A DNA stretch of 56,751 nucleotides from the IMG/VR virus record IMGVR_UViG_2778261162_000006, positions 1 through 56,751 of that record; one strand, given 5' to 3'. The position numbers and the translations under genes are program-made. This document shows, in pieces, positions 1,369 to 56,751 of this stretch (the first letter of the stretch is position 1; every line of letters starts with the position of its first letter). The notes under the pieces were generated by a model, which worked only from the letters and a program-made list of their open reading frames with translations, had not been told where the DNA came from and did no database searches. This DNA comes from a virus (Duplodnaviria > Heunggongvirae > Uroviricota > Caudoviricetes).

Positions 1369-1444
1369 GCCGATATAGCTCAGTTGGTAGAGCAGCGCAT
1401 TCGTAATGCGAAGGTCGTAGGTTCGACTCCTATTATCGGCACCA
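1369..1444 (+). tRNA. thrW: tRNA-Thr (anticodon CGU)
   Basis: 76-nt sequence GCCGATATAGCTCAGTTGGTAGAGCAGCGCATTCGTAATGCGAAGGTCGTAGGTTCGACTCCTATTATCGGCACCA with GGTTCGA T-loop and 3' CCA; anticodon CGT by position. Confidence 0.9.
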
Positions 1445-1446
1445 TT
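1399..1446 (+). repeat. attL core: 48-bp tRNA 3' segment repeated at 42647..42694
   Basis: ATTCGTAATGCG...CGGCACCATT read directly at both positions. Confidence 0.85.
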
Positions 1447-1458
1447 TAAATCAATAAG

Positions 1459-2622
1459 TTACACATCATTAGTACCTTCCTTATTTTTTGACTGGGACAA
1501 ATTTGGGACCGATGGGTTTAGGATCGAGTCTATTTGCCGTGCGTGTTCGGTAAGGTGATTAGGTGCAAGGTGAGCATATCGACGAACCATTTCGATAGAC
1601 TCCCAGCCTCCCATTTCCTGTAACACTGACAACGGGACTCCGGCTTGAACCAGCCAACTTGCCCAGGTGTGTCTCAAGTCGTGAAATCTGAAATCATCAA
1701 TACCAGCCCGTCTCAGCGCCGCTTTCCAGGCTGTGTTTGCGTCATACCGCATCTTCCTGACTGTTGGCGCTTTCGTTCCGTCTGGTTTGGTACAGCTTTC
1801 CTTGTACACAAATACCCAACGGTGATGATTCCCGATTTGTTTTTTCAATACGCGACATGCAGTATCATTCAGCGCAACGCCAATTGCGCGGTTTGATTTA
1901 CTCTCTTCCGGGTTTATCCATGCCACCCGGCGCTGCATATCTATTTGTTGCCATTCAAGGTTGATGATGTTCGAGCGTCTTAGGCCTGTTGCCAGTGCAA
2001 ATTCAACAACAGACTTTAATGGCTCCGGACATTCATCAATCAGCCTTTGTGCTTCATGGGGCTCCAGCCAGCGGATCCGTTTATTCTTTGGTTGAGGCAC
2101 TTTAATAATTGGTGCCTTATCCAGCATTTTCCATTCACGCTCTGCGGCTCTTAGTAGGGCCTTTATAAATGAAAGATGCGTAGCCTTCGTTGCAACGGAC
2201 GCTGGTTTTGGCGTGTATTCTGGAACAGGTTTCCCTTTTTTTCTGCATGCTTCTGCCCTGAGTTTCCAGTTTTCCTCATGACGCCGGTTCGTCATTTTCT
2301 GCATTGCTGAATAAATTTTTGATTCAGTAATGTCTCTTAGTTGCATTCCTGCGAAATGTTGAAGCCAGAATCCGATCCGGCTTTTGTCATCGTCCAGTGA
2401 TTTTTTATGTGCTTTCTCTTCAAGCCACCTGACACATGCTTCCTCGAACGTTATATCAGGTATTTCACCAAGTTTGCTGACCCGCCATGCTTCAGCCTTT
2501 AGCTTGTCATGGAGTTCTGTCGCCTGCCTTTTGTCCTTTGTTCCAAGAGACTGTTTAAATCTTTTACCGTTCGGCAATGTGAAACTGGCGTACCATATTT
2601 CACCTCTGCGGAAGAGTGACAT
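1459..2622 (-). CDS. Tyrosine-type phage integrase (Rac IntR-like)
   Basis: 387 aa; C-terminal HDLRHTWAS...RRYAH catalytic motifs; N-terminus [14 protein letters not shown] recalled from Rac-type integrases; adjacent to tRNA. Confidence 0.9.
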
Positions 2623-2849
2623 TTTCTTTCCTCTGTTATGCCATCACCCGCGCTCACCTGGACAGTATGCAGCGGAGACTGAAGAGCCGCAATGCAGGCT
2701 TGTCGTGTTGTGAGGTAAGGAGATTTATTCTTAGTGGGATCTTTGCGTGTTGCCTGAAGACGCCCTGTGCGTATCCAGTTAATGGCAGTCGGTCTGGATA
2801 TCTTGAGAAAATGACAGGCCTCATCGAGTGTGAGGCTGTATGGCTCCAT
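2499..2849 (-). CDS. Excisionase (Xis-like)
   Basis: Internal ATG of the 2499..2933 ORF gives 116 aa starting [29 protein letters not shown] (HTH-like); TAATG overlap with upstream gene; overlaps int 5' end as is common for xis-int. Confidence 0.7.
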
Positions 2850-3154
2850 TATTTCACCTCTTGCTGTGACATTGTTGAAAAATGGATACCAGCTCGTTGC
2901 TGCCAGACGATCCAACCGAGAGTCATATCCCATGCCATGTATTCGTTATCGCCGTTTTTTGCTCTCCGACGATCTACTAAGTCACCGAAACGCTTTTCCA
3001 TGAATAATTCATAAGCTTCGCGTTCATCTGGTTCTACTTCCAGAGATAGGAGTGCGATTTCATAAGCACGGCGCTCAATATCGTCTCGCACGTCAAGGCT
3101 GCTGATACGCTCTTTAATTTCTTTAATCAGTTCTTTGTCGGTAAAAGTGGTCAT
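2849..3154 (-). CDS. Hypothetical phage protein (101 aa)
   Basis: ORF in early-left operon, acidic composition, overlapping junctions with neighbours. Confidence 0.6.
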   Translation of the reverse strand: MTTFTDKELIKEIKERISSLDVRDDIERRAYEIALLSLEVEPDEREAYELFMEKRFGDLVDRRRAKNGDNEYMAWDMTLGWIVWQQRAGIHFSTMSQQEVK

Positions 3155-3516
3155 TATGCTCCAGCCTCCGGTGCTTTTGGCATTACTGCCCAGTGAGTGA
3201 TATTGACGTTTTCAAGGTCCCCGACCTGAAATGTCCACTGCCATTCTCCGGTTTCTTTTTGTCCCCAGGTGTACCAGAGAGAACGCCAGCCAATTAGCCA
3301 GCCTTCTCCGTTAGCATCGAATAACAAAACACTTTCATTTGCTGGTGGCAGTTCAGTTGACACTGGTATTACTTTGTTTTCCTGTGCTGCACATTTAGCT
3401 TCAAGCGCATCGAATTTACGCACCAGGTATTCAGCATCTGTTTCATTTACTTTCAGATCTCGCGGTACACATCTCCCACGAAGAAACCCTTCCATTTCGA
3501 AAACATTCATGCGCAT
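3154..3516 (-). CDS. DUF551-like phage protein
   Basis: 120 aa; Trp-rich C-terminal region typical of DUF551 proteins; recollection-based. Confidence 0.6.
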   Translation of the reverse strand: MRMNVFEMEGFLRGRCVPRDLKVNETDAEYLVRKFDALEAKCAAQENKVIPVSTELPPANESVLLFDANGEGWLIGWRSLWYTWGQKETGEWQWTFQVGDLENVNITHWAVMPKAPEAGA

Positions 3517-4043
3517 TTGCGTAACTCCGATAACTCGTTAAAGCGTTCCATAAACATCCCGTAGGCATGGCCCGGTGCCAGTGGAATCACGTTGAACATC
3601 TCTGTTGCCGGGATACCTTCCAGTACAGGCCAGAAAGAGCCATCATCAAGCCCGAGATCGCGGCGTTCGGTTGCCAGCATGATGAGATCGGCATATTTCA
3701 CGGGCGTACTCATAACTGGGGGTAACCCGTATTTCTCACGGATTACGGCGTCTATTTTTTCTTCCATTTGTTTATAGTCAGGAAGAAGGCGTTTCAGTGG
3801 TGCGGGAATGTCCTGGCAATACGCTTCTGTTGCATCATGCATTAACGCTTCAAAAGCAAATTCCTGCGGCACCAACTGGCTGCAAAGAACCGCATGTTGG
3901 GCGACGCTGTAGAAGTGCGAAAGATGACCGGCAAAGCGACAGATATTTGAAAGGGAAACCGCGATATCGTTAATATCGATGTCGTCTTTATTTATCCTGT
4001 CATAATAAAAATGCTTCCCGGAAAAAGTTTTAATAAATGACAT
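3507..4043 (-). CDS. HD-domain phosphohydrolase (YfdR-like 5'-deoxynucleotidase)
   Basis: HxxxxxxHD-like motifs (HFYSVAQHA...HDATEAY); start placed at internal Met MSFIKTFSGKH. Confidence 0.75.
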   Translation of the reverse strand: MSFIKTFSGKHFYYDRINKDDIDINDIAVSLSNICRFAGHLSHFYSVAQHAVLCSQLVPQEFAFEALMHDATEAYCQDIPAPLKRLLPDYKQMEEKIDAVIREKYGLPPVMSTPVKYADLIMLATERRDLGLDDGSFWPVLEGIPATEMFNVIPLAPGHAYGMFMERFNELSELRKCA

Positions 4044-4170
4044 TTTGTTCTCCACGTATATGCGCTGCACCGCGCTGAATTCTGGTAAAAAGAATCCCTC
4101 ACCATCCGGCGATTATTGAGTAAATTACGTTTCCATAAATGCCCCCGCAGGGGCATTTGCAGTAATGAAA

Positions 4171-4995
4171 TCAGGCGGTGAAAGTACCAATAAAGGTTTC
4201 TACTTTGCTGTCCTTGAATTTCTCAACAAGCAGATCACGAAATTCGTTAGCCATTTCTTCCTGCACCGCCTCCAGCTGAATAATGCGCAGAACCAGTACA
4301 GGACGATCGCCAGTGATAATACTGAGGCGTAATTTAAACGGACGTTCTTTCAGACCTTCAAACGGAACGCATTTAAATTCAAATGCCACTGGCATAATGT
4401 CTTTGGTCTTCGCTTCGACAGACTCCATCAGGGAGCGTTTGCCGCTGAAGTCATTATCTTCAAAATCAGCGGTCTGGTTTGCTTCAATCGTGATTTTACG
4501 GACAGCCGCAGCCGCTTTTGTTGCCTGAATAGCGTCACCATTAGCATCAAAGCCCACAAGATAGTCGGCCCAGTCTTCAATCCATTCTGCCAGTGACTTC
4601 TGGGAGTTACGCTCGCCGTTAACAGACAACAGAGCAGAGAACGGTGCTGTCTTTTTCAGTTTGAGTGTGGCGGTGTTATCTGCGTGACCTGGTTCATCAA
4701 TAGTACCCAGGTTAAGCACACTGACGGCACGCATATTATCAGCATCGATAAAGCAGCGGGTGCCTTCATCTGCAAGATCTTTAGAATAACGGGTAAAGTC
4801 ATCGATGCTGGCAGTGGAAAGCGCACCACGGAAACGGAAGCGATTTAAATTAAATTTTTCCAGATCATGAATGCGGAAATTCTCAGGCAATGCCACAGCA
4901 TCGGCACCAATCTTACTGATAATTTCATTAACACCCTGAGCAGAAATAAGGGCATGGATTTGATTAATTGCGGTTGCGTCTAAGTTCTGAGACAT
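4171..4995 (-). CDS. DUF2303 family protein (YfdQ-like)
   Basis: 274 aa, colinear with the yfdP/Q/R-like block of CPS-53-type prophages; recollection-based. Confidence 0.65.
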
Positions 4996-5060
4996 AATAA
5001 GTCCTCACTATATAAAGATATTCAGTGATGAGATAAATAATCAGTTAATTAAAAACGATA

Positions 5061-5423
5061 TTAACGACCTGCTGCGCGGAGTTTTCCGTCAGGTTCACCG
5101 GCAAGAGTCAGTAACTGTCCCTGGTCTTCCTGCAGAATAGTCAGGCGACCACCGCGATTGACATACATCGGCGTTTCGGTGGTGTCTTCTTCGGAAATTT
5201 TCCCGCGGTTAGTCGGGCGAACATATGAGAGTTTGTGTTTGATTTTCACACGGTTCTCATCAAATGGTTCGATTTCCAGGTTGAGTGAGACCTTACCTTT
5301 GGTTTTCGTGTTCATCACACCGGAAGCGACTTCACTGAGAACTGCGCCGATTTTGGTTTCAAATACGCCGCCGTCCAGCTCCCCGATAAATGCCTGCACA
5401 TCAGTACTGCGTTCGCTAGCCAT
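5061..5423 (-). CDS. YfdP-like hypothetical protein (120 aa)
   Basis: Start at internal ATG (5423) preceded by GAGGAG; the longer 226-aa reading extends into a GC-rich structured region with implausible composition. Confidence 0.65.
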   Translation of the reverse strand: MASERSTDVQAFIGELDGGVFETKIGAVLSEVASGVMNTKTKGKVSLNLEIEPFDENRVKIKHKLSYVRPTNRGKISEEDTTETPMYVNRGGRLTILQEDQGQLLTLAGEPDGKLRAAGR

Positions 5424-5891
5424 TTTGCTGCTCCTCATCATATCGACCCTGCAAGGCCGATTAGTTTCTCCACAAAACAGAGAAGAACACCTGCGGTGGC
5501 AGCCGCCCGGATGGATTGGGTTATGAGCCCGTCGTCCGGTGATGCTCTTCTCTGTTTTGTAAAAAGGACGGTACCAGCCGGAAGCAAGGGTACAAACTGG
5601 TACCTCCAGGACTACACACAGCATAAAGTTGTGGTGCCGGGTGCCTCCCGGTGCCTGGCGAAGGTTGCACACCAGACGGGTGGGTATCCACAGAAGGTCG
5701 ACTGTCAGCCTCAACCTTAACCCGCGTGCGCTGAGCCGCATTCACCACAACGCTAAGGATTCTCTCTGGTTAAAAATACTTAGCTGTTATGTGCCTGCTT
5801 TTAGCCACATCAGGCGAGGTGGACCTGGTTATTCCCCAACAACAAGGATTCGGTTAATCTGGTTATCCCCAACAACGCAAAAGGAAAAGAA

Positions 5892-6326
5892 ATGTCCGGT
5901 AATATCTACACGCTGTACAAATCCCACTGTGAAAATGTTGGAAAGTATCGGGGCATTGAAATCAGTGGGGTAGTGTCATCAGTCGAAATAAGCAAAGTGG
6001 AATCAAGGGCAACATTACTTACTCTTCTGGACCTTGTCTTACATGAGCACCGGAAGAAATTCGGCACTCCCTATAATCAGTTGAATGGGAAAAAGGCTCT
6101 GGTTCACCTTATTCTGATGAAGCATCACTGGATGCCAAAACAGATTAATGAGATGAAATTTGATGAACTTCTTCTTTCAATTCAGGATGAACTCACACTT
6201 GATAAAATAAGCGTAACCGCCCAGAAATTTTTAGATTATCGAGACTGGAGATCACAAATTCATCATTTTGATGATTTTGACGAAAATGAATGGGATCCTA
6301 ATTTGTCTGCACAATATCTAAAGTAA
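5892..6326 (+). CDS. Hypothetical protein (144 aa), AT-rich moron opposite to the early-left operon
   Basis: ATG with AAGGAAAAG RBS; low GC versus flanks; preceded by a 34-nt tandem repeat. Confidence 0.65.
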   Translation: MSGNIYTLYKSHCENVGKYRGIEISGVVSSVEISKVESRATLLTLLDLVLHEHRKKFGTPYNQLNGKKALVHLILMKHHWMPKQINEMKFDELLLSIQDELTLDKISVTAQKFLDYRDWRSQIHHFDDFDENEWDPNLSAQYLK

Positions 6327-6519
6327 CATCCTGTGATAAAACCGTGATTTCCTGATCCAGTTTTTTTAAGGAGTCTATTGTTTCCTGTCGATAAGACAGC
6401 ACTTCACGAAGCTGGTTTATAGCTGCCAGCTTCTTTGTCATCCACTCATAAATTTCCTCATCTGTGTAGCCAGGCGCGACGATTTTGGGTTCTGTTTTGT
6501 GCATTTCACATCTCCTCAA
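6298..6519 (-). CDS. Hypothetical protein (73 aa), first ORF downstream of OL-like operators
   Basis: ORF only; 3' end overlaps the convergent 5892..6326 gene by 29 nt; not Arg-rich like lambda N. Confidence 0.45.
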   Translation of the reverse strand: MRRCEMHKTEPKIVAPGYTDEEIYEWMTKKLAAINQLREVLSYRQETIDSLKKLDQEITVLSQDVTLDIVQTN

Positions 6520-6564
6520 GTTATCAGTTACTTGTTGATGGGGACCAGATTGTTAAAGAGCTAA

Positions 6565-6586
6565 GCGTCCTGTAGGGCGCTTTTTT
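6565..6586 (+). terminator. Rho-independent terminator (plus-strand orientation)
   Basis: GCGTCC-TGTA-GGGCGC hairpin followed by TTTTTT. Confidence 0.55.
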
Positions 6587-6665
6587 GTTGCTAACGAATC
6601 ATCCTGGACTTCATATGCCCCAGGCGGCTACTTCGTGGGCGTCCTGCCTGTTCGTTGTTTCGCTT

Positions 6666-6702
6666 GGGTACATTATGTATCTCAAAGGTACATTGTCAAG
6701 TA
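6666..6702. promoter_or_regulatory. OL-like operator sites
   Basis: GGTACATTATGTA and GGTACATTGTCAAGTA; same GGTACA/TGTACC half-sites as the cI-cro intergenic region. Confidence 0.55.
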
Positions 6703-6738
6703 TAAAAAAACCTGCCGAAGCAGGTTCATAAACATTGA

Positions 6739-7413
6739 TTAGGCTTTGATTTTGTATCTTCTTGGTTTTCCTGAGAAAATCACTGTACCAATTATAGAGC
6801 AATTACCGTTGATCTTAATGTAAGGCTCAGGCCAGTTTGGGTTTAACGCTTTGAGATAACGCTGTGTCCCATCTTCTATCAACCTTTTGAAGGTGGTTTC
6901 GCCTGTATCGTGCATCAATGCAATAACGTCGTCACCGTGGCAGGCAGGTACTTCAGGATCGACAAAAATCATGTCTCCCGGGCGGTACTCATCAATCATT
7001 GAATCACCTATCACCCGCAAGATATAAGTCATTTCCCCACAGGGTACAGGGCAGGGATACGTTTCTGCTGTGCTCAAATCAACCTCAGAATATCCAACTT
7101 CTTTCCATGCTCCGGCCTGTACCCATGATATGACAGGGACTAATGTGATTTGTTTATTAGTGATTGAAACATCAGGTTTTTTTGTGATGTTCGTTGTCTG
7201 GTGTTCTTGATCGAGCCATCCGACAGGCAGGTCGAAACATTTTTCGATGTGTCGTGCCATGCTGTCACCGATATTTTTAGTAGCACCATCTCCCATAAAC
7301 CTGCTGGTCTGGGTTGGCTCGCGATCAATCATAGTGGCAAAGGAAGAATTCCCGCCAACACCATCTCTCAGTTTTCTGGCGTTAGACCGCCGGATGTCAT
7401 GGATTGTTTTCAT
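6739..7413 (-). CDS. CI-like repressor (HTH plus S24 LexA-like peptidase domain)
   Basis: 224 aa; C-terminal VIGDSM and later Lys-containing motif typical of S24 autopeptidases; divergent from cro-like gene. Confidence 0.85.
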   Translation of the reverse strand: MKTIHDIRRSNARKLRDGVGGNSSFATMIDREPTQTSRFMGDGATKNIGDSMARHIEKCFDLPVGWLDQEHQTTNITKKPDVSITNKQITLVPVISWVQAGAWKEVGYSEVDLSTAETYPCPVPCGEMTYILRVIGDSMIDEYRPGDMIFVDPEVPACHGDDVIALMHDTGETTFKRLIEDGTQRYLKALNPNWPEPYIKINGNCSIIGTVIFSGKPRRYKIKA

Positions 7414-7503
7414 AACGAAATTAAAACCCTTGTACCGTTAAGGTACAAGTATCTTGAAGGTTCATTTCAATCATGTAATATGTACATCGGAGGTACATAT
7501 TGT
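7414..7503. promoter_or_regulatory. OR-like operator/promoter region between cI and cro
   Basis: Palindrome CTTGTACCGTTAAGGTACAAG (7429..7449) and ATGTACATCGGAGGTACAT (7473..7494). Confidence 0.7.
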
Positions 7504-7704
7504 ATGAAAGCGTATTGGGACTCTTTAACCAAAGAACAGCAGGGCGAGTTGGCCGGAAAAGTTGGCTCAACACCTGGCTACTTACGGCTGGTTTTCAATG
7601 GCTATAAAAAAGCCAGTTTTGTGCTGGCTAAAAAACTTGAGCAATGCACGTCAGGTGCAATTACGAAATCTGACTTAAGACCGGATATCTATCCGAAAGA
7701 TTAG
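7504..7704 (+). CDS. Cro-like HTH regulator (66 aa)
   Basis: ATG at 7504 after GGAGGT; HTH-like LAGKVGSTPGYLRLVFNG; the longer 7201..7704 ORF is antisense to cI. Confidence 0.7.
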   Translation: MKAYWDSLTKEQQGELAGKVGSTPGYLRLVFNGYKKASFVLAKKLEQCTSGAITKSDLRPDIYPKD

Positions 7705-7735
7705 CAGAACACTTTCAATTTTTAACCACAGAACG

Positions 7736-8299
7736 ATGAGGCTAACCGTGGGTAAGCATCACTGGAAAATAGAAAAACAGCCTGAGTGGTACGTGAAAGC
7801 TGTCAGAAAAACTATCGCGGCGTTGCCGGGTGGTTACGCTGAAGCGGCTGACTGGCTCGATGTAACAGAAAACGCTTTATTCAACCGCCTTCGTGCAGAT
7901 GGCGATCAGATTTTCCCGCTGGGATGGGCAATGGTTTTACAGCGTGCTGGTGGCACTCACTTCATTGCTGATGCTGTGGCGCAGTCTGCAAATGGCGTCT
8001 TTGTGTCTCTTCCTGACGTCGAGGATGTGGACAACGCCGATATCAACCAACGCCTGCTGGAAGTCATTGAACAGATCGGCAGTTATTCAAAACAGATTCG
8101 TTCAGCAATTGAAGACGGTGTAGTGGAACCGCATGAGAAGACAGCAATTAACGATGAGCTGTACCTCTCAATTTCGAAGCTGCAGGAGCATGCAGCACTG
8201 GTCTACAAAATCTTTTGCGTTTCAGAAAGTAGTGACGCCCGCGAGTGTGCAGCTCCGGGCGCCGTGGCGTGTCGTGACTGTGGAGAAACTAACGCATGA
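7736..8299 (+). CDS. CII-position regulator (YdaT-like), 187 aa
   Basis: Position immediately downstream of cro; family assignment by recollection only. Confidence 0.5.
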
Positions 8300-8634
8300 A
8301 CAGTTTAACAACACACTACCGTCGCTCGCAACTGATTGCGCTTCCTGTACCGGGTGGAAAAGCGAAGGTGGAGTATTGCTATGCAGTAAATGTACCAGGT
8401 GACAGGGAAATTGTAACCCACAGCTTTGCAGAGTGGGCTGTGGGTGATTTCAACCGGCAGAAGGAGACAGTCCTTTGCGACAAGTTAACCGCTGGTTCAA
8501 AGATCACTACGGAGTGCCCGTCAGAGTCATTCGTTGGGAGCCGGAAACACAACGGGTTATCTACCTCCGTGAAGGCTATGAGCATGAGTGCTTCAGCCCG
8601 CTCGAACAGTTTCGTCGTAAATTCAGGGAAATAG
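8296..8634 (+). CDS. Hypothetical protein (112 aa); C-terminal half may be out of frame
   Basis: ATGA overlap with upstream stop; a second frame (TTG at 8475 with AAGGAG SD, to 8654) encodes a more protein-like 59 aa. Confidence 0.45.
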
Positions 8635-8643
8635 AGGTCGGTC

Positions 8644-9585
8644 ATGAGCACTAAATTAACCGGCTATGTATGGGATGGTTGCGCTGCGTCAGGCATGAAA
8701 TTATCCAGCGTGGCAATTATGGCCCGCCTGGCTGATTTCAGTAATGACGAAGGTGTGTGCTGGCCATCAATTGAAACCATTGCCCGTCAGATTGGCGCGG
8801 GGATGAGTACCGTCAGAACGGCTATCGCACGGCTGGAAGCAGAAGGCTGGTTAACGCGTAAGGCGCGTCGCCAGGGTAACCGCAATGCGTCGAATGTTTA
8901 TCAGCTTAACGTTGCGAAGCTTCAGGCAGCGGCATTTTCTCAACTGTCAGATTCTGACCCGTCAAAATCTGACGCATCAAAATCTGACCCGTCAAAATTT
9001 GATGCGTCGAAATCTGGCAAAAAAGCGGGTTTTCACCCGTCAGAATCTGGCGGGGATCCGTCAGTAAAATCAAAACATGATCCGTCAGATAAAAAAACTT
9101 CTCGTCCGGACGCTTCGCAACCGGACACGCAGACGGCTGAACAGGAGTTTTTAACTCGCCATCCTGATGCGGTTGTATTCAGCCCTAAAAAGCGCCAGTG
9201 GGGAACGCAGGATGATTTGACCTGCGCACAGTGGCTCTGGAAAAAAATCATCGCCCTGTACGAGCAGGCCGCCGAATGTGACGGCGAGGTGGTTCGTCCC
9301 AAAGAACCGAACTGGACAGCCTGGGCAAACGAAATTCGCCTGATGTGTGTGCAGGATGGTCGTACTCACAAACAAATCTGCGAGATGTACAGCCGCGTCA
9401 GCCGCGATCCGTTCTGGTGCCGTAACGTGCTCAGCCCGTCGAAGCTGCGGGAAAAATGGGATGAGCTTTCCCTGCGCTTATCGCCGTCCGTCAGCACGTA
9501 CACAGAAAAACGCGAAGACCCGTACTTCAAAGCCAGTTACGACAACGTGGACTACAGCCAGATCCCGGCAGGATTCAGGGGGTGA
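8644..9585 (+). CDS. Replication initiator (lambda O-like, N-terminal winged-helix)
   Basis: 313 aa; N-terminal HTH region; internal iteron array as in lambda ori. Confidence 0.8.
   Translation: MSTKLTGYVWDGCAASGMKLSSVAIMARLADFSNDEGVCWPSIETIARQIGAGMSTVRTAIARLEAEGWLTRKARRQGNRNASNVYQLNVAKLQAAAFSQLSDSDPSKSDASKSDPSKFDASKSGKKAGFHPSESGGDPSVKSKHDPSDKKTSRPDASQPDTQTAEQEFLTRHPDAVVFSPKKRQWGTQDDLTCAQWLWKKIIALYEQAAECDGEVVRPKEPNWTAWANEIRLMCVQDGRTHKQICEMYSRVSRDPFWCRNVLSPSKLREKWDELSLRLSPSVSTYTEKREDPYFKASYDNVDYSQIPAGFRG
8945..9100. repeat. Origin-like iteron array inside the O-like gene
   Basis: Repeated ~15-bp units TGACCCGTCAAAATC / TGACGCATCAAAATC / CCGTCAGAATCTG / CCGTCAGATAAAAAAA. Confidence 0.7.
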
Positions 9586-9587
9586 TC

Positions 9588-11617: not shown

Positions 11618-11618
11618 G

Positions 11619-47375: not shown

Positions 47376-47461
47376 CAGTAAGAGGATGTAAACGACAACG
47401 CCCCGAACTGTTTGCGGCAGTAGCGGGGCGTCTAACCAAACCGTTAAATGAGGTAACGATT

Positions 47462-48821: not shown

Positions 48822-48825
48822 AACC

Positions 48826-49116
48826 ATGAAAAAGAAAAATTCTGGCTTTACTGCCAGCGGCCTCTCTCGGCCTGAAATCCGCCCCGGTGATATTTTCCGG
48901 GACACCAGACGCGGGGGACGGGTGGTTATTCGTCACGTTATGCCAGGCAATATCACCTACCGCCGTGAGGCTTACGAATATGACTGCGTAATGCCGCGCC
49001 GTCAGTTTGAGCGTGATTTTATTCTGGTTGAAAACAAACAACAGGCGGTGGCGAGACGTGCAGCCACGAATATTAAAAAAATCCGGGCAATGTTGGTTGC
49101 GGGAGGTAAGAAGTGA
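48826..49116 (+). CDS. Hypothetical basic protein (96 aa)
   Basis: ORF upstream of primase. Confidence 0.5.
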   Translation: MKKKNSGFTASGLSRPEIRPGDIFRDTRRGGRVVIRHVMPGNITYRREAYEYDCVMPRRQFERDFILVENKQQAVARRAATNIKKIRAMLVAGGKK

Positions 49117-50885
49117 AAAACGCACCGAATTTAAAATATCAGCCGAAGGATAAATTCACCGAGGTAATCATTTTTGCCGGGACGGACGCTTACTCCCATG
49201 CTCAACACTGGATTGAAAGCGAAGGACGAAAACACGGCGATAACGTACCACCTGTTTACCTGGGGCCAAAGCAACTGGCAGACCTGGTGAATATCCGCAT
49301 TGTCGACGATGAACGCCGCTTTGCGCGTGTCTATCTCGCGGGGGAGATCGAACCAATCCAGATCAATGCTATCGCTGAAAAACTGGCGCTGGCTGGCGTA
49401 CAGGAGGCGAAATTATACAAAGGCATCACCGACCGGGAACCGGAGAACTGGCGCGATTACCTGCAACGGATCCGCGAACAGGCAGAGCGCGGGGATATTC
49501 TGTCAGGAAGGACTGAGAAAAAACACAAAATCTCTCTTTCCAGAATGGCGGATAACGAGCGAGCTTCACTTTTGGCTGAATGCTTTGAGGAAATAGCTGT
49601 TCACCCTGGTAACAATTTTGCTTATGCATACTGTTCTGGAGTGTGGGAAAAAATATCTGATATGGAGTTGAGTCGTAAAATGGTATCAATTTACGAAAAA
49701 AACAAGACAAATTTCAGTAAGCGGGCAATTAGTAATGCGGTTGATGCTTTAAAAATATCTGTACCCGTAATGAGAGAACAGAGTGACACCATAATACCTT
49801 TTGAAAATGGAGTTTATGACATAACAAGTGGTAGATTTTTACCTCATTCACCAGAGCACTGGATCACTTCGCATAATGGAATTTATTATACGCCACCTGC
49901 GCCTGGTGAAAATATTCATGACCATGCGCCCCATTTTCATCGTTGGCTGTCACATGCAGCAGGATACGATTCATCAAAGATGAAGCGGATATGTGCTGCT
50001 CTGTTTATGGTTTTGGCTAATCGCTACGACTGGCAATTATTCATTGAAGCAACTGGCGAAGGTGGAAGTGGTAAAAGTATGTTTACTCAAATTGCCAGAA
50101 TGTTGGCGGGTGAGCAGAACACCGCAGGCAGTGATATGAAAGCGTTAGATGATGCTGGTGGACGTGAGCAACTAGTTGGTAAAAGTCTGATTATTTTACC
50201 GGACCAACCTAAATATTTTGGTGAAGGTAATGGTATTAAAGCTATAACAGGTGGGGATCCTCTGCAAATCAACCCGAAATATGAAAAAAGATACACCACT
50301 GTCTTACGCTCAGTTGTTTTGATAACAAATAATAAACCGATGGTTTTTACAGAAAGAGCGGGAGGTATTTCACGCCGTAGGGTTATTTTTCAGTTCAATA
50401 ATCCGATAGCGGAAGAAAACAAGGACACATGTTTACCCAAAAAAATTGCAGCGGAAATTCCGGTAATAGTCCGTAGGCTGTTGGTAAATTTTTCAGATCC
50501 CGAAAAAGCAAGAACATTACTGCTCGAACAACGTGATGGTGAAGAAGCAATGGAAGTAAAACGCCATACTGATCCGCTATATGCTTTTTGTAACCATATT
50601 GTCGAACTTGGTGAAGCTGTAGGAATGTTCATGGGAAACCTGAATATATATCCAAGAGCCCCTCGAATTTATCTTTACCATGCATATCTTGCATATATGG
50701 ATGCTTATGGTTTCGATAAGCCATTAAATCTAACTAATTTTGGCAAAGATTTCCCAAAAGTGATGAAAGAATATGGGGCTGAGTATAAGAAGGCAAAGAC
50801 CAATGTCGGAATGCGCTACAACATGGAGCTGGCTGACAGTGCTAATGAATGGTTACCCGCTGTGCCAAAAATCCATGAAAAGTGA
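49113..50885 (+). CDS. P4 alpha-like primase/helicase
   Basis: 590 aa; GTG start after GGGAGGT; Walker A EATGEGGSGKSM; followed by iteron-rich origin. Confidence 0.75.
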   Translation: MKNAPNLKYQPKDKFTEVIIFAGTDAYSHAQHWIESEGRKHGDNVPPVYLGPKQLADLVNIRIVDDERRFARVYLAGEIEPIQINAIAEKLALAGVQEAKLYKGITDREPENWRDYLQRIREQAERGDILSGRTEKKHKISLSRMADNERASLLAECFEEIAVHPGNNFAYAYCSGVWEKISDMELSRKMVSIYEKNKTNFSKRAISNAVDALKISVPVMREQSDTIIPFENGVYDITSGRFLPHSPEHWITSHNGIYYTPPAPGENIHDHAPHFHRWLSHAAGYDSSKMKRICAALFMVLANRYDWQLFIEATGEGGSGKSMFTQIARMLAGEQNTAGSDMKALDDAGGREQLVGKSLIILPDQPKYFGEGNGIKAITGGDPLQINPKYEKRYTTVLRSVVLITNNKPMVFTERAGGISRRRVIFQFNNPIAEENKDTCLPKKIAAEIPVIVRRLLVNFSDPEKARTLLLEQRDGEEAMEVKRHTDPLYAFCNHIVELGEAVGMFMGNLNIYPRAPRIYLYHAYLAYMDAYGFDKPLNLTNFGKDFPKVMKEYGAEYKKAKTNVGMRYNMELADSANEWLPAVPKIHEK

Positions 50886-51165
50886 ACAGTGGTGAACAGT
50901 GGTGAACAGTAGTGTTCACCTCTAAAAGCTGCGTCATTACTGGATTCATCGACGAAATGAACGCCGTGAACAGTTTCGGCTAAAACTTTTAAAACGCATT
51001 GTAACTTGTAACAGTGAATCATTTTCACTGCAAATTAAATTCTATAGGGGGTAACTGTTCAACTGTTCACTGAAACAAAATAACCATATGATTTTAAACT
51101 AAAAAACATAGTGAACAGTTATTAAAAAACTGTTCACTAACTATTCACGACTGTTCACAATCAAA
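50881..51165. repeat. Origin-like iteron cluster (P4 ori/crr-like)
   Basis: GTGAACAGT x3 tandem, GTGTTCACC, and many further TGAACAGT/ACTGTTCA copies. Confidence 0.7.
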
Positions 51166-51233
51166 ATGGAATAGTGTGAATAATTGGAATTTTTATCACG
51201 AAATTATAGAAATAGAGTTGCAAAGGGGGGGGT

Positions 51234-51581
51234 ATGTTTCTTGAAGCTATACCCAAAAATATTTCGCCAGCGGTTCAGGGTTGGTGGGCAAAATTCAGGA
51301 ATGATAATGGCAACGACTGGTATAGTCCGATTGCAGCATGGGCGATTTGTGATGTGTTTTATTCTGGTGATTCAGAAATTTATTCTGAAATATTACCGAT
51401 TCTTACTGGTGAGTATGGAATGGCACCGTATCATCAGGAAGATGGTTTTTACGAATGCATGTATTTGCCAAACACAAAATTCATTCTTTCTGATGAACCT
51501 GGATCATTTGCGTGGTATCCGGTAGATGAAAGTGCCGGGCATGAAACAATCAGTAAAAACGATGGGGCAAAGCATGACTAA
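51234..51581 (+). CDS. Hypothetical protein (115 aa)
   Basis: ORF with ATG after G-rich RBS. Confidence 0.5.
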   Translation: MFLEAIPKNISPAVQGWWAKFRNDNGNDWYSPIAAWAICDVFYSGDSEIYSEILPILTGEYGMAPYHQEDGFYECMYLPNTKFILSDEPGSFAWYPVDESAGHETISKNDGAKHD

Positions 51582-52104
51582 GCTGACCATTAACAGAAAA
51601 CCGAAAGGCATTTACGGCACGCCGCAGAAAACGACGCAGGCGGCACAGGAGCAGGATAAAACCACGTCGGCGCATAAAGTGATGCCCGGTAACCAGAAAG
51701 CGCAGCAGAAGCCCACAGGGGCGACACCGTGGCGGCATATGACCAAGCGCCAGCGCAAAAACCGCAGGCGCATTAACCGCCTCACTGAGTTGTGGCCTGA
51801 ATTATTCAGCCGGGAAGCACCGAAGCCGCTTAAGGTGGGGATATTCGACGACCTGATGCAGGATCTCGCCGTCAGGGGGCTGGCATTCGGTCCAGGGGCA
51901 TTGCGTGCGACGCTGGCATCTTATGCACAGTGTCCGCGCTATTACCGCGCCTTAATGGCTGGTGGGGTACGCTACGACCTGAAAGGCCAGCCGTGCGGCG
52001 AGGTGACACCACAGGAACAACAGGACGCAGAAACGCGGCTGGTGGCGCTGAATGAGAAGCGCAAACGTCAGCGCCGGGTAGCAAAGGAGAAAACAGGCGC
52101 ATGA
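51574..52104 (+). CDS. ProQ/FinO-family RNA-binding protein
   Basis: RRRINRLTELWPELF...PKPLKVGIFDDL...ALRATLASYAQCPRYYRAL matches the FinO-domain pattern. Confidence 0.7.
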   Translation: MTKLTINRKPKGIYGTPQKTTQAAQEQDKTTSAHKVMPGNQKAQQKPTGATPWRHMTKRQRKNRRRINRLTELWPELFSREAPKPLKVGIFDDLMQDLAVRGLAFGPGALRATLASYAQCPRYYRALMAGGVRYDLKGQPCGEVTPQEQQDAETRLVALNEKRKRQRRVAKEKTGA

Positions 52105-52388
52105 TTCACGACAGCAAAGCGGAAGCACTGGAAGCGCGTGGCCTGTACCGGAGAGCGGCGGCGCGGTGGGCTGAGGTCATCATGCTGGCGAATGATGACA
52201 AGGCACGGGAACAGGCGGCAAAACGTCGCGCGGAATGTATCCGCAAGGCAGCACGCCCACCAGCACGGCAGGATAATTTCGGGGAGATGCGCGAAACCAT
52301 CAGCCGGGCACATGCCGGGATGGGATTACATCAGCCCAATGGTAAGGCATTCAGGAAATACCCTGGATCGAAAAATTGCAGTCAGTGA
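52101..52388 (+). CDS. PerC-family transcriptional regulator
   Basis: EALEARGLYRRAAARWAEV signature. Confidence 0.7.
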   Translation: MIHDSKAEALEARGLYRRAAARWAEVIMLANDDKAREQAAKRRAECIRKAARPPARQDNFGEMRETISRAHAGMGLHQPNGKAFRKYPGSKNCSQ

Positions 52389-52802
52389 CGGAGGCCGGGA
52401 TTTTTCCCGGCTTTTTTGTGCCAGTAAAAAGCCCGCAGCCAGAAGTGTTGCGGGCTTTGTTTTTCAGGTGATTGAAGTCAATGGGAAGAACGCGATCATC
52501 ATGCGTTATCGTTTCATAAATTGCAATGATGTAGATCGTCATTTCAGTTTATGCAATCATAACCATTGTTTTGTTCAGGAGATATGACTATGAGAAAAGC
52601 CAGCGTGAAACCCGTTTTACTCGCTCGTGATCAGATTGAAGCATTACAGCGCATCCAGGACGAGGAACGCCGCAATTCTCCGCTGGGGATTGCTCCGAGC
52701 ATTCATGAGGTCGCCCGGCGTTTAATGCAGCGGGCGCTTTATCCCGTAGAACGTCCGGCCTGATGGTCGTGATTTTTTGGTGAAAAAAGAGAGGTGGTAA
52801 AA

Positions 52803-53381
52803 ATGCCAGCAAGCAAAGAAGATTTGCGATTAAAACTGATGGAGGTGGTTAACGCTCTGTCAGAGTCGCAGGGAAGCACTCCGCAGGAGATTATCGAAAT
52901 TCTGAATGCGATCCCCGCACAGGATTTCATAAAAGAGGATAACGCGAATCAAAACATCGTCGCGTCAGTCGAAGATGAATCCTCACTGGCAGAAGCCCAG
53001 GCTAAAGCGGATTCCGCATACAGCAATATGGGCCGTCGCGCTCCGGCCCCGTTTGCTGGTGAAAAGTCGATGGATTACCGCAAACGTGCATTAATTGGCG
53101 CACAGAAGCTGGCTAAAAAATTCAGTGATGTGGATATTCGTTCCGTTTCAGATTCTGCAACGCTGGCGGTGCTGGAAGATCAGATTTACAAGGCTGCTCA
53201 GGAAAGTGCTCAGTGGGCCGTGGAAAACACGCCGGGCCATTTGGGTAAAACCGTAAGAATGGATGAAGCCGGTCGTCGTATTACTGAATATCAAGGAGAT
53301 CCGAACGTCTGGCTGAACGCCTTCAAAATCCCTCCCCGTCGCCTGGTCAAAATTAACGTTGCAAGCCTCGCGGGGGCATGA
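52803..53381 (+). CDS. Hypothetical protein (possible capsid-remodelling/late protein)
   Basis: ATG after GAGGTGG; position in distal late-like region. Confidence 0.5.
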   Translation: MPASKEDLRLKLMEVVNALSESQGSTPQEIIEILNAIPAQDFIKEDNANQNIVASVEDESSLAEAQAKADSAYSNMGRRAPAPFAGEKSMDYRKRALIGAQKLAKKFSDVDIRSVSDSATLAVLEDQIYKAAQESAQWAVENTPGHLGKTVRMDEAGRRITEYQGDPNVWLNAFKIPPRRLVKINVASLAGA

Positions 53382-53445
53382 AAAACGTGCTGAGTTCAGC
53401 CCTGCCGGATTTGGCGGGGCTTATTGCTTATAACCGGATAACATT

Positions 53446-54117
53446 ATGCTTTTAACAGAAATTGAGGCGGCGAAGCAGGTTCGGGACGGACAGCTACCGT
53501 CGCCTTATCAGTTTTCCAACATGTGGCTGGTTAACCTGCGTATCACAGGAACCGGAATGGCCTACCGCGCCGAAGAAAAAGAATTTGTCTGGCGTTCACC
53601 GCAAACTTATCTCAATCCGCAGTTCCTGGAACGTTGCGCCGGAGTACCCGTCATTATCGACCATCCCGAAAGCAAAACCCTTGAAGACGTGGGCGAACGG
53701 TCGCGCATTATTGGCACCGTCATGTTGCCGTATATTCGCGGTGACGAGGTGTGGGGCGTATGCCGGATTTACGGGCAGGAAATCATCGATTACATCCAGA
53801 AAGCACGGGGGGAGGTATCCACCAGCCCGTCGGTTGTGTTTTGTGGTGCGTCCGGTGGGGCTGAAGTTCCTGATGTAATGGGCGAGGACAATTTTTTTAT
53901 TGAGGGTACGCCATTTCTTATCGATCACGTTGCGCTCGTGCCGCTTGGTGTTTGGGATAAGGGCGGGAAACCATCGGGCGTGGAAGTAACAACGCCGACA
54001 GCAGAAGAACAGCTTGCCGGAATGGTCCGGGACGTTATTGATGCGGCCTGCAAGCCAGCCCTGGAAAAACTGGAAGAAATATCCGGGCGGCTGGCTCAAC
54101 TGGAAAAAGAAGGGTGA
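53446..54117 (+). CDS. Hypothetical protein (223 aa)
   Basis: ORF. Confidence 0.5.
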   Translation: MLLTEIEAAKQVRDGQLPSPYQFSNMWLVNLRITGTGMAYRAEEKEFVWRSPQTYLNPQFLERCAGVPVIIDHPESKTLEDVGERSRIIGTVMLPYIRGDEVWGVCRIYGQEIIDYIQKARGEVSTSPSVVFCGASGGAEVPDVMGEDNFFIEGTPFLIDHVALVPLGVWDKGGKPSGVEVTTPTAEEQLAGMVRDVIDAACKPALEKLEEISGRLAQLEKEG

Positions 54118-54123
54118 GTCATA

Positions 54124-54651
54124 ATGCTGATGAGTAAGGCAGAATATGCCAAACACAAAGGCGTAAGCCGCCAGACAGTTTACGACTGGATCGATAAAGG
54201 CGAAGTGGTCATGTCCGGTAAAAAAATCGATGTGGAAGCGACAGAGCAGCGGAACAGCCCACCTGCACAGGGAAAAGACACAGTTTCTGAAATGTGGCCA
54301 GAGAGAACGCTGGAAATGACGTGGGGCGAGTTCTGGAAAGCAGTTAAGGCCAGAGGCGGTAAAATTCCTGCGCCAGCAACGGACGAGGGCATACAGCAGC
54401 GTGTGCTGGATGCAGCCGGGGAATTAGGCTGGGAAGTGCACTTTCTTGATGATGGTGCTATCTGCCTTGAGGATTGCGACGGGCAGCATTACTTTGAACA
54501 ATACAATTTGCGAGGTAATGCCAGGCTGGCAATTCGTATGCTGCGTTGCGAACTCTGCTATGTTGCAGGTGATTATCCCGATGAACTGGAATCATGGAGT
54601 GAAGCCGGGCTAAACGCCCTGGCTGAATGGGAAAAATCAGACCATCAATGA
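54124..54651 (+). CDS. HTH DNA-binding protein
   Basis: N-terminal SKAEYAKHKGVSRQTVYDWIDKGEV helix-turn-helix. Confidence 0.55.
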   Translation: MLMSKAEYAKHKGVSRQTVYDWIDKGEVVMSGKKIDVEATEQRNSPPAQGKDTVSEMWPERTLEMTWGEFWKAVKARGGKIPAPATDEGIQQRVLDAAGELGWEVHFLDDGAICLEDCDGQHYFEQYNLRGNARLAIRMLRCELCYVAGDYPDELESWSEAGLNALAEWEKSDHQ

Positions 54652-54655
54652 CATC

Positions 54656-54870
54656 AAAAAGTGTCAAGTTGAGCAGCTTGCCAGGTTGACACTTTACACT
54701 CTGAACGCGAAAAAGTGTCAACCTCGCTGTAAGCCCCGCCATTACTGGGTTTGTGCCAGATTTACCACGTCAAAAAGCCGAAAAAATCGCGAAAAGTGTC
54801 AAGTTGCTATGCTTAGAAATGCTAAGGTTTGATAAGGTTTTTCGCGAAAAAGTGTCAAGTGTGTCAACCG
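54656..54870. repeat. Array of AAAAGTGTCAA repeats with inverted TTGACACTT partner
   Basis: At least four direct copies at ~50-80 bp spacing and one perfect 10-bp inverted pair separated by 20 bp. Confidence 0.7.
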
Positions 54871-55143
54871 CGCCGCTTTAGAAAACTTTATGTGCAGATC
54901 GTTGGATGCATCTGTCAAAACTTGCCACCCACCAGCACCGCCAGCGGGGATTTTTGGCTACACGCGCTCTAAGTAACAGTTGCTTCAGTGCGTTACATAC
55001 GTTGGAAGTGTTATAACTCAAGTTTTTGAGACAAAGTCAGAATTGTATGAATTTGTCTATAGCCGTCTACTCAAGTTTTCTACATAATATAAGGAAATAG
55101 CATGTTGTTTAATTAATGTACGATAATTCTGAAAGAGTAACAT

Positions 55144-55971
55144 ATGATAAACTTAGATATGGATGTTGTGGTTGGACATGGGCAGAACGATTTTGAAGAA
55201 TTAGAAATGAATTCCGGCATAAAGGTTTTTGCTGGAGCTTCTGACATCACCCAAATTACAACAAGCACTATTTTAGATGATTCAGTCCCCAAAAAATCAA
55301 CCTCTATACATGGGCTTAGGAATATGTTCAAACATACATTTGATGGATCGTTTGGACAAAATTTTGAACTTAGAATTGATGATCCTGAAAAGATAAAAAG
55401 ATTTAATGAAATTGGCAGGGGTGTTTTTTTTGATGTTATGTCATATTACATCTCTAAAGGAATGGGAATAGCTCACCATCTTAAGAGCCAGAAAGCAATC
55501 GACTTAGTAGAGCGTCTTAAACCGCTTGAAAAACAACTTTTGATAAGAATTCAGGAACCTATACAGAATTTACATAAAACAGTTGAGAAACAAAAATATA
55601 ATGTACTTCTGAGAAGAAGAACACCAACTAAAAAATTAGTTGTTGCTAAAATGGATACGCAGACGCTCTTCAATATCAATGTAGAGCATGAATCTGCTCA
55701 ACCAGTAGAAGAAAATGTTATTATAACTAGGTTTAATATGTTAACAGGAACTGGTCGATTGTTATTAGATAGACAGTCAGATTCAATTGCCTTTAGACAC
55801 CATCTTAATTGGGAACATGTATTGCAGTCTCAGAAAAATAAGTTTTCAAGGAATCTTGATAGGAATAACAGAGGTGGTAAAGACGCTTTTATACCTATAA
55901 CCATTTCTGCTTATGAGTTGCGCGATCATATTGGAGAGCTAAAGGCTTATATAATTAGAGAAATATTGTAA
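55144..55971 (+). CDS. Hypothetical protein A (275 aa), first gene of AT-rich cargo operon
   Basis: ATG; strongly AT-rich; no recognised motifs. Confidence 0.65.
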   Translation: MINLDMDVVVGHGQNDFEELEMNSGIKVFAGASDITQITTSTILDDSVPKKSTSIHGLRNMFKHTFDGSFGQNFELRIDDPEKIKRFNEIGRGVFFDVMSYYISKGMGIAHHLKSQKAIDLVERLKPLEKQLLIRIQEPIQNLHKTVEKQKYNVLLRRRTPTKKLVVAKMDTQTLFNINVEHESAQPVEENVIITRFNMLTGTGRLLLDRQSDSIAFRHHLNWEHVLQSQKNKFSRNLDRNNRGGKDAFIPITISAYELRDHIGELKAYIIREIL

Positions 55972-56751
55972 ATGAAGATGCCCTCAATCAAAGTTATTTC
56001 ACTTATATTAATAGCTATTGTATGGTATTTTTACTTTTCTCATTTCAATCATTGGGATAGCCCGTTAGATATCTTTAATGCTAGCAAATGGATGGGTTTT
56101 TCCAATGATAAAGGTGATTGGGGCACTTTCGGGGATTTTGTAGGAGGTGTGCTTAATCCTATCTTGACCTTCATTACAATTGTTATGCTCATTAATTCCT
56201 TGAAACTTCAACGAGAAGCAAACGAGCAACTAATTAAAGACGAAAGAAGACAAGAGAAAGACGTTCTTCTAAAACGGTTTGAAGACGGTTTTTATAACCT
56301 TATCTCTTCAGAAAGAGAGGAGTTTAGTTGTTTTACTATTAACATTAACGGAAAAGAATACCGCTCATCTGCTGCTGTTAGTGAATTGGAAGAGGCAATA
56401 TGGGCTTTTATTGAGAAACAAATAGATGAAAAAGGAGCTTGCGAAATTGAGGATGTTAAAAATTACATAAATAAAATTGATGAGGATTCATCTATGGCAA
56501 TATTTTCCATGGTGCGATGTGTATATGTTGTTTTTAAGGTTGTTAAGGATAAATGCCCTGAAGAACATCAAGATTACTACTTAGATATTTTTATGAATAT
56601 GTTACCAGTTAAACTGGTAAATTTAGTTGCTATTGTGTCTGTGTATATGGACTGGAAAAACGTAAAATATATTATTGATGGTGGAAAAGGATTTTCGGAT
56701 AATGAAGCAGTTAAAGAATATATTAATACTTGGAAGGAGTTTCATGAATAA
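55972..56751 (+). CDS. Hypothetical membrane protein B (259 aa, two N-terminal TM helices)
   Basis: ATG immediately after the stop of gene A; hydrophobic helices VISLILIAIVWYFYF and FVGGVLNPILTFITIVMLI; a further ATG begins 11 nt before window end. Confidence 0.65.
   Translation: MKMPSIKVISLILIAIVWYFYFSHFNHWDSPLDIFNASKWMGFSNDKGDWGTFGDFVGGVLNPILTFITIVMLINSLKLQREANEQLIKDERRQEKDVLLKRFEDGFYNLISSEREEFSCFTININGKEYRSSAAVSELEEAIWAFIEKQIDEKGACEIEDVKNYINKIDEDSSMAIFSMVRCVYVVFKVVKDKCPEEHQDYYLDIFMNMLPVKLVNLVAIVSVYMDWKNVKYIIDGGKGFSDNEAVKEYINTWKEFHE

Follow-up and report, generated by a model that had tools for sequence, protein, structure and literature searches.

The DNA stretch analysed here, referred to as the window hereafter, comprises positions 1 to 56,751 of the Caudoviricetes record IMGVR_UViG_2778261162_000006 (56,751 nucleotides, nt). 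It begins in chromosomal DNA with proA, downstream of which lies thrW, the sole tRNA gene detected in the window by ARAGORN and Rfam. Two elements follow in series (Table 1): a prophage related to the Shigella phages SfV, SfII and SfIV, and a shorter, satellite-like element that is cut by the window end. A second copy of the 3′ part of thrW separates them. An earlier note on this DNA had described the two copies as exact, with a complete prophage between them whose integrase abuts the tRNA gene; it had placed a P4-type integrase and a satellite-like gene set directly after the second copy, and it had concluded that thrW was hit at least twice and that the satellite could use the adjacent prophage as its helper. 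We are highly confident in the combined reading that the first element is an SfV-like prophage, that the second is a Gram-negative phage-inducible chromosomal island (PICI) with the integrase and attachment (att) type of EcCIMP1, and that the two are independent of each other. The late genes of the satellite suggest a helper other than its neighbour.

Three observations define the prophage and its ends. One is that the two 48-mers are identical at 48 of 48 positions, and that identity breaks off right at both of their ends. The repeat consists of the last 46 nt of thrW and the 2 nt downstream, and by our own arithmetic (~1.6e9 pairs / 4^48) the chance expectation of an exact 48-mer repeat in 56.7 kb is ~1e-20. 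Another is the position of the prophage integrase gene (int), which points outward beside attL, as in SfV, its open reading frame (ORF) ending 12 nt past copy 1. The last is that SfV 20552..20700 equals the left flank of the window attR, the 48-mer and the right flank of the window attL joined together; thus, recombination of attL and attR in silico regenerates the known attP of the free phage SfV. The earlier note had also proposed a search for a third att copy downstream. In the window, none was found on either strand at up to 14 mismatches in 48, and none for the 12–20-nt 3′ cores; a third copy was found only in related genomes, past the window end.

The 41.2-kb prophage shows 96–98% nt identity to Shigella phages SfV, SfII, SfIV and SfI and to Escherichia phage vB_EcoM-689R6 over 53–71% of its length. 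With SfV, SfII, SfIV and SfI, which integrate at thrW and have an HK97-type head and a Mu-type contractile tail, it shares nearly the same Int, the 48-bp attP core with identical flanks, most of the early, head and tail genes, and the HNH/cos/P27-TerS packaging module. Judged against the annotated prophage L009 and PHROGs, its modules are complete: a lambdoid early region with int/xis, repressor and replication genes, lysis, HNH, cos, small (TerS) and large (TerL) terminase subunits, HK97-type head, and Mu-type contractile tail, the tail region also holding tube, baseplate, fibre and fibre-assembly genes and a Pin-type invertase. Unlike these phages, it differs in the Q-to-lysis and tail-fibre regions, and it does not carry the gtrABC serotype-conversion cassette beside attP: the gene for the anti-phage defence protein Ppl and other ORFs occupy the gtrABC position of SfV, SfII and SfIV. 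The content of this site is cargo and does not define the phage type. In relatives, the same site carries a gene for a "4-fold beta flower protein" (L009) or for an AAA ATPase (L007). We regard the element as an SfV-like temperate phage, which would be inducible.

Comparison of related genomes revealed four occupancy states of thrW: an empty site, followed by a LysR remnant and paoD (BUCT2930, L008); an SfV-like prophage only (FDAARGOS_433, L007); the satellite only, directly at thrW (TUM9757, L002); and the tandem (L7_E1373, L001/L009). The junction sequences of the four states align base by base. Among 5,426 complete E. coli genomes, in which all population counts were made, the proA-thrW-SfV-int junction occurs in 960, the full-length satellite-family integrase in 505, and the tandem junction (prophage right end, att and satellite int) in 154, about 3%. 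Outside their catalytic core, the two integrases bear no relation to each other (27% identity over 60 amino acids, aa). From the rebuilt SfV attP, the four occupancy states and the unrelated integrases, it follows that the elements are independent. Thus, the account of exact repeats, of a complete prophage bracketed by them with its integrase beside the tRNA gene, and of at least two hits at thrW was borne out, and in these relatives the interval does not appear as a single element. thrW is a multi-occupancy hotspot, and the tandem arrangement is ordinary and recurrent, both elements being of known kinds.

Other tandems were also seen at thrW. In NZ_CP062868 (L003, 21369..37204), a decayed SfV-type prophage (int to yfdQ), rnlAB and IS1 are followed by a second exact att copy and then by a P4-like satellite that encodes a retron-like reverse transcriptase and an alpha primase and also carries psu and a delta remnant. 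In E. coli MP1 (L004, 2333..9718), an "unclassified genomic island" with vat, marR and IS1 lies beside EcCIMP1; it has the same left-end sequence as the window satellite and an integrase remnant 92% identical to the satellite integrase. To judge from these sequences, it appears to be an island of this att/int type that has decayed; MP1 would then carry a PICI/island tandem at thrW. In addition, the phage side of attL at window 1447..1463 (TTAAATCAATAAGTTAC) is similar to the chromosomal sequence flanking the empty site (L008 5049..5065, TAAAATCAAAGAGTTAC); this 17-nt stretch beyond the 48 bp shows mosaic variation between strains, as if repeatedly swapped by integration and excision.

Table 1. 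Features of the window (positions in the 56,751-nt stretch; aa, amino acids)
Feature	Position	Strand	Basis
proA (glutamate-5-semialdehyde dehydrogenase)	1..1254	+	chromosomal left flank; RefSeq annotation of 99.9%-identical genomes
thrW, tRNA-Thr(CGT), intact	1369..1444	+	ARAGORN; Rfam tRNA model 71.8 bits
Prophage attL core, repeat copy 1	1399..1446	+	exact repeat; identical 48-mer in SfV attP
SfV/SfII/SfIV-like temperate myovirus prophage, apparently complete	1447..42646	.	nucleotide identity to Sf phages; full gene set (L009, PHROGs)
Prophage integrase, 387 aa	1459..2622	-	98.5% aa identity to SfV Int over 387 aa
Excisionase-position ORF overlapping int	2499..2933	-	SfV xis position; PGAP "helix-turn-helix domain" coding sequence in L003, L009
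LexA-family (cI-type) prophage repressor	6739..7413	-	counterpart of L009 ymfK "LexA family protein"
PerC-family protein (yfdN-type), 164 aa	9582..10076
Q antiterminator	12630..12995	+	PHROGs (region matches E 1e-26 to 1e-109)
Probable moron	13008..13883	-	PHROGs
DNA methyltransferase	14626..15678	+	PHROGs
Holin, endolysin, spanin	15659..17070	+	PHROGs
HNH endonuclease	17839..18189	+	L009 annotation
cos (putative)	~18247/18248		end of linear SfV record maps to window 18247
P27-family TerS	18306..18809	+	L009 annotation
TerL	18806..20539	+	L009 annotation
Portal, HK97-family prohead protease, major capsid protein	20733..23822	+	L009 annotation; no similarity to Rac-SA53 head module
Contractile tail region	26006..38090	+	L009 and L001 annotation; PHROGs tail-fibre match
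Tail sheath	26006..27502	+	L009/L001 annotation
Tape measure	28269..30104	+	L009/L001 annotation
Ppl-type anti-phage defence gene, 917 aa, cargo beside attR	39531..42284	-	PADLOC Ppl, E 2.3e-157, full length
Prophage attR core, repeat copy 2	42647..42694	+	3′ part 42676..42694 = satellite attL core
PICI-type phage satellite, cut by window end	42695..56751	+	gene content; alone at thrW in L002; third att copy in L001
P4-family tyrosine integrase, 404 aa	42859..44073	+	Pfam Arm-DNA-bind_3, Phage_int_M, Phage_integrase
int-alpA RNA motif	44118..44185	+	Rfam RF02996, 45.5 bits vs gathering score 35.8
267-aa protein, function unknown, between int and alpA	44196..44999	+	100% conserved in L001
AlpA (PICI master activator/excisionase family)	45227..45424	+	Pfam Phage_AlpA, E 2.4e-19
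AntA/Bro-network protein	45502..46302	+	Pfam AntA, E 2.4e-23
510-codon open frame ending in Icd-like domain	46295..47827	+	NCBIfam phage_ICD_like at aa 462-505
DUF4222 protein	48826..49116	+	Pfam DUF4222
D5/P4-type primase-helicase, 590 aa	49113..50885	+	Pfam D5_N, DUF5906, Pox_D5
ProQ/FinO-family protein	51526..52104	+	Pfam ProQ E 7e-24
PerC-family regulator, 95 aa	52101..52388	+	Pfam PerC E 2e-32
Two terminator hairpins	52392..52461	+	hairpins seen directly after PerC
Late zone: 195-aa protein, then 223-aa DUF2213 protein	52794..54117	+	homology to Rac-SA53 rac43
175-aa protein: N-terminal Xis/MerR-type winged helix and alpha/beta domain of unknown fold	54124..54651	+	weak HTH_17 and TerS N-terminal matches; AlphaFold2 (AF2) pLDDT 88
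Two cargo genes, 275 + 259 aa, GC 33%, function unknown	55144..56751	+	composition

The stop codon of the last satellite gene closes the window, and the right end of the satellite was delimited in the related genome NZ_LR882990 (L001). In this genome, the left end of the satellite from int to AntA and the 3′ cargo up to the window's last base show 98–100% protein identity to the window, and the Bro, primase and late parts differ. A degenerate third att copy, TCCTATTATC-GCACCATT with 1 nt deleted, lies 257 nt past the equivalent of the window end, and it is followed exactly by the chromosomal flank of the empty thrW site. Based on this attR, the full satellite would measure ~14.3 kb, and the source genome is expected to continue past the window end with TCCTATTATC-GCACCATT and then TAAATCAA..GTTACCCCATATTTAAATACACC. 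The same 1-nt deletion, located in the acceptor-stem part of the displaced thrW fragment, was found at the right ends of the satellites of L001 (22882..22899) and L002 (23702..) and of EcCIMP1 (L004, 9718, reverse complement), whereas the 48-bp copy of the prophage is exact. Such "damage" of the tRNA fragment at attR has been reported for PICIs only, not for prophages (PMC10111431), and the deleted attR of the satellite fits this report. The PICI core is also contained in the last 19 nt (TCCTATTATCGGCACCATT) of copy 1.

The closest characterised relative is EcCIMP1, the PICI of E. coli MP1, which was experimentally shown to excise, circularise and be transduced from the tRNA-Thr gene between proA and yagU with the core TCCTATTATC; it is mobilised by phage Kapi1 and is induced, replicated and packaged with this helper (PMC11773190). 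The window satellite has the same site, the same core and the same 1-nt-deleted attR. Its integrase, whose ORF starts 165 nt past copy 2, is 96.8% identical to that of EcCIMP1 in aa sequence, its AlpA is 81% identical, and AntA, Icd-like, DUF4222 and PerC genes are present in both islands. They differ in the replication protein (TOPRIM/DUF927, 918 aa, in EcCIMP1 vs D5-type, 590 aa, in the window), in the late zone (P22-like ejection proteins vs Rac-type head-gene fragments) and in size (20 kb vs ~14.3 kb), Kapi1, the known helper of EcCIMP1, being P22-like. The general features of PICIs are also seen: int lies at one end and points inward, AlpA is encoded downstream of int, a primase-replicase is present, and the size falls within 10–20 kb. 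The gene order is that of the four zones of Gram-negative PICIs, namely integration, Bro, replication and late (PMC10111431), and of the five core components that de Sousa et al. 2023 (PMC10085698) list for PICIs, the island appears to possess four to five. Among the ORFs scanned with Pfam, PHROGs and NCBIfam, none is a tail or lysis gene, and such genes are also excluded from the corresponding ~0.3 kb past the window end in L001. The P4-family integrase and the satellite gene set of the earlier note are thus confirmed, but the element is a Gram-negative PICI of the EcCIMP1 integrase/att type rather than a P4-like satellite. Compared with the EcCICFT073-type cos/Rpp PICIs (PMC6739421), it likewise has int, alpA, a primase, a PerC-like gene and a short late zone; it is unlike them in that the lambda cosN (GGGCGGCGACCT) is absent, and so are an Rpp homologue by sequence or fold and a signature of a lambda-type helper.

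The late zone provides a clue to the helper. In the prophage Rac-SA53, the gene rac43 is flanked by the portal/head-morphogenesis genes on one side and by the major capsid gene on the other, and homologues at the same position were found in phages of Pantoea, Klebsiella and Yersinia. Its product (431 aa) consists of a DUF2213 domain, an Ala/Glu/Lys-rich coiled coil and a C-terminal domain. The C-terminal 129 aa of the 195-aa late protein are 64% identical to rac43 aa 295–423, and identity between the 223-aa DUF2213 protein and rac43 aa 3–226 is 54%. The late zone is a split and re-ordered rac43: the C-terminal domain comes first, with a new 60-aa N-terminus, and the DUF2213 domain comes second, as a separate gene. 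In the DUF2213 protein, an invariant His73 and Ser125–127 are spaced like the dyad of prohead proteases, which we treat as a lead only. For the 175-aa protein that follows, the best Foldseek match of the AF2 model is the Xis of phage Pukovnik, over the first 46 residues only (E ~0.5). This protein was also considered as an Rpp or a TerS: no PDB sequence match, no phage tblastn match, and no RppC or TerS fold match was obtained.

It has been proposed that PICIs acquire their late zones by capture from the helpers they use (PMC10111431), and we therefore tested the co-occurrence of the satellite late module with the Rac-type head. The late module occurs in 34 of the 5,426 genomes, and the Rac-SA53-like head module in 90. 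Of the 90, 60 were listed, and these include at least 16 of the 34, against an expectation of 0.56 (odds ratio 64, Fisher p 1e-20). In STEC719 (L011), the same late module belongs to a PICI that lies at smrA/abgR and has another integrase, and a Rac-type prophage occupies ttcA. Because the late genes correspond to a Rac-SA53-type head protein split in two, a Rac-SA53-like phage is the likely helper; we put this identification at slightly better than even. Such a phage is more likely to be the helper than the adjacent SfV-like prophage, or is at least the donor of the late genes. In the literature searched, no paper was found on a PICI with a Rac-type late module paired with a Rac-SA53-like helper.

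Several points weigh against this interpretation of the satellite and its helper. Of the 34 genomes with the late module, 18 are not among the listed Rac-positive genomes; the statistic ignores shared ancestry, many of the genomes being of porcine enterotoxigenic E. coli; and the same co-occurrence would also arise if Rac-like phages were the mere source of captured genes. As for a capsid role of the DUF2213 protein, its PHROG match to "head maturation protease" is weak (E 5e-5), a 4-sequence profile gave no match in the PDB, and the single-sequence model (pLDDT 43.5) is unusable. The satellite yielded no identifiable small terminase, Rpp or cos/pac, its right end and attR lie past the window end and are drawn from a relative's genome, and excision, induction and packaging of satellite and prophage would be as in characterised elements by analogy.

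The suggestion of the earlier note that the adjacent prophage is the helper, so that its induction would activate the island and package it in SfV-type capsids, is not supported by these comparisons, and we regard it as unlikely. Apart from the physical adjacency, it can draw on the tandem junction, which is found above independence (154 observed vs 89 expected, 1.7-fold, odds ratio 2.2); this enrichment is small, however, it is computed from non-identical proxies, and clonal lineages such as ST361 dominate it, kinship being ignored. DUF4222 and PerC-family proteins are encoded by both elements (36% identity over 55 aa for PerC), and PICI helpers can be diverse, the known helper being present in only 2 of 21 EcCIMP1-carrying strains (PMC11773190). 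Nevertheless, the two elements have no DNA longer than 19 nt in common, nothing above chance, and so no shared cos; the satellite has neither a lambda-type cosN nor an Rpp homologue, and none of its proteins resembles the TerS, TerL, portal, protease or capsid protein of the prophage. Its late genes derive from a head protein that the prophage, with its unrelated HK97-type head module, does not have. Moreover, the closest relatives with the same late module are located at thrW without the SfV-like prophage (L002; H16–H18) or elsewhere (L011), and the late zone of the L001-type satellite, which is often in tandem with an SfV-like prophage, has no similarity to SfV-like or Rac-type phages.

It is also improbable that the second element is a decayed, immobile PICI remnant persisting beside the prophage. 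The missing TerS, Rpp and cos, the degenerate attR fragment, and the commonness of same-integrase remnants at thrW (e.g., in CFT073 and the MP1 island beside EcCIMP1) would be consistent with decay. Against this, the integrase, AlpA, AntA, primase and late genes are full-length and 97–100% identical in unrelated strains and contexts, the 1-nt-deleted attR is shared with the functional EcCIMP1, and its modules recur, reshuffled, in islands whose integrases and sites differ, implying mobility in the recent past. A single composite element moving as a unit from 1447 to ~57000 is highly improbable and was rejected: composites of helper and satellite that excise as one unit do exist for helper-embedded PICIs (PMC10111431), and the outer att copies share the PICI core, but there is an exact internal att copy, SfV is a free phage with the matching attP, the integrases are unrelated, and the four occupancy states, with prophage-only and satellite-only thrW, contradict it. 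Nor is the island embedded in a late gene of a helper prophage, as the helper-embedded type requires; it lies beyond the prophage attR, at the tRNA core. We give next to no credence to a P4-like satellite dependent on a P2-like helper: the P4-family integrase, AlpA, the Icd-like region, the long translationally coupled ORF upstream of the replication genes (cf. P4 eta), the C-terminal P4-family domain of the primase, and a true P4-like satellite at the same position in L003 speak for it, but integrase and AlpA are common to PICIs too and do not discriminate, no Psu, Delta or Sid domain occurs in the satellite ORFs scanned (such domains are present in the L003 element), the primase is a 590-aa D5 type scoring 101 bits against TIGR01613, under the 108.7 cut-off of NCBIfam, rather than the 777-aa alpha type of P4, no C4/isrK-type RNA was found at E ≤ 1, and the late zone is Rac-type.

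Based on these results, a model of the locus can be proposed. The two elements in series are site-specific and independent, both using the 3′ end of the tRNA gene as attB with unrelated tyrosine recombinases. The prophage Int recombines the 48-bp core, whereby the tRNA 3′ part is duplicated exactly and thrW stays intact at attL. The satellite Int uses the short core (TCCTATTATC...) inside the same 48 bp, and the satellite would therefore be bounded by the prophage attR copy on the left and by the shorter, 1-nt-deleted tRNA fragment on the right. Either order of arrival would yield the tandem structure, the junction sequences being compatible with both, and each element should be able to excise alone. 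By analogy with known PICIs (PMC11773190, PMC6739421, PMC10111431), the satellite may be silent until a helper phage, possibly a Rac-SA53-like one, induces alpA. AlpA would then prompt the P4-family Int to excise the island and would drive read-through into the Bro, replication and perhaps late zones, the primase would replicate the island, and the late genes would interfere with capsid assembly and packaging of the helper. A candidate mode of this interference is a free C-terminal capsid-binding domain acting beside a separate DUF2213 domain with a protease-like dyad.

Although the neighbour does not donate the capsid, the adjacency could itself have a function, an idea, with all its variants below, that we hold to be unlikely. 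If the PICI excised from a solo site, thrW should be left damaged, in line with the "addiction" idea (PMC10111431). In a tandem, it is the pseudo-copy at the prophage attR that would receive the scar; the prophage would thus shield thrW, and the scar could pass on or block excision of the prophage. By analogy with EcCIMP1 and Kapi1, for which they are reported, replication in situ or cross-talk of excisionases could couple the two elements. If the adjacency were functional, the tandem excess (154 vs 89) would reflect selection rather than shared ancestry.

The remaining genes of the satellite were also scrutinised. The 510-codon frame and the end of antA, stop codon included, have 8 nt in common, and Icd-like sequence is confined to the last ~50 aa of the frame. 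The frame is open in hundreds of diverged variants (290–598 codons). Its 5′ part shows no third-position bias, and 22 nt changes give 14 aa changes there, vs 26 giving 6 in antA; relatives are not homologous across its middle part, and the frame is overlapped by PGAP-annotated minus-strand ORFs (YlcI/YnfO family, 46969..47313), which have their own terminators. On the substitution pattern, an ordinary protein-coding gene was rejected for the 5′ part, and the persistent openness of the frame is only partly explained. In P4, translation of eta, a translationally coupled frame of the Bro zone, prevents termination (PMC10111431); the 510-codon frame may be its analogue, kept open so that translation prevents termination. 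Two sub-threshold Rfam matches, "ncr1175" and "anti-hemB", were dismissed as mere terminator hairpins. Small ORFs lie between this frame and the DUF4222 gene. As for PerC, the EcCIMP1 homologue represses expression from the enterocyte-effacement locus, LEE (PMC11773190).

At the right end, the two cargo genes matched only PHROGs of unknown function, with one sub-threshold PADLOC match, and the 275-aa gene has only 10 database clusters (E. coli and Yersinia). The 267-aa protein near int gave no match in Pfam, PHROGs, PADLOC, NCBIfam or PDB, and for these three genes together no convincing match to a defence function was found in PADLOC, Pfam, NCBIfam or PDB. TUM9757 carries another pair at the cargo position, encoding a 229-aa protein and a 576-aa zinc-ribbon protein; position and variability fit a PICI accessory/defence hotspot. 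In the prophage, a 291-aa ORF lies in a low-GC (41%) island between Q and the methyltransferase gene; it belongs to phrog_5783, of unknown function, gave weak NYN/HEC-09 matches in PADLOC (E ~5e-4), and is probably a moron.

The structure itself carries little weight, since tandem occupancy of tRNA genes is well documented and both SfV-like prophages and EcCIMP1-type PICIs are known at thrW. As in the tandem island arrays and PICI tandems reported previously (PMC10111431; PMC10085698), three att copies delimit two elements in series, the PICI attR being "damaged" and the prophage copy exact; unlike them, the present pair consists of a prophage and a PICI with unrelated integrases at one tRNA gene, being neither a PICI/PICI tandem nor a helper with an embedded PICI. 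Novelty is modest and consists of a mosaic PICI variant together with a lead to a Rac-type helper. The locus nevertheless serves as a clean worked example for delimiting a prophage and a satellite, because automated prophage callers would merge the two, and it illustrates that adjacency should not be taken as a relation of helper and satellite. Finally, the late zone offers a testable lead, in that a PICI module made of a split Rac-type DUF2213 head protein may point to Rac-SA53-like phages as helpers.

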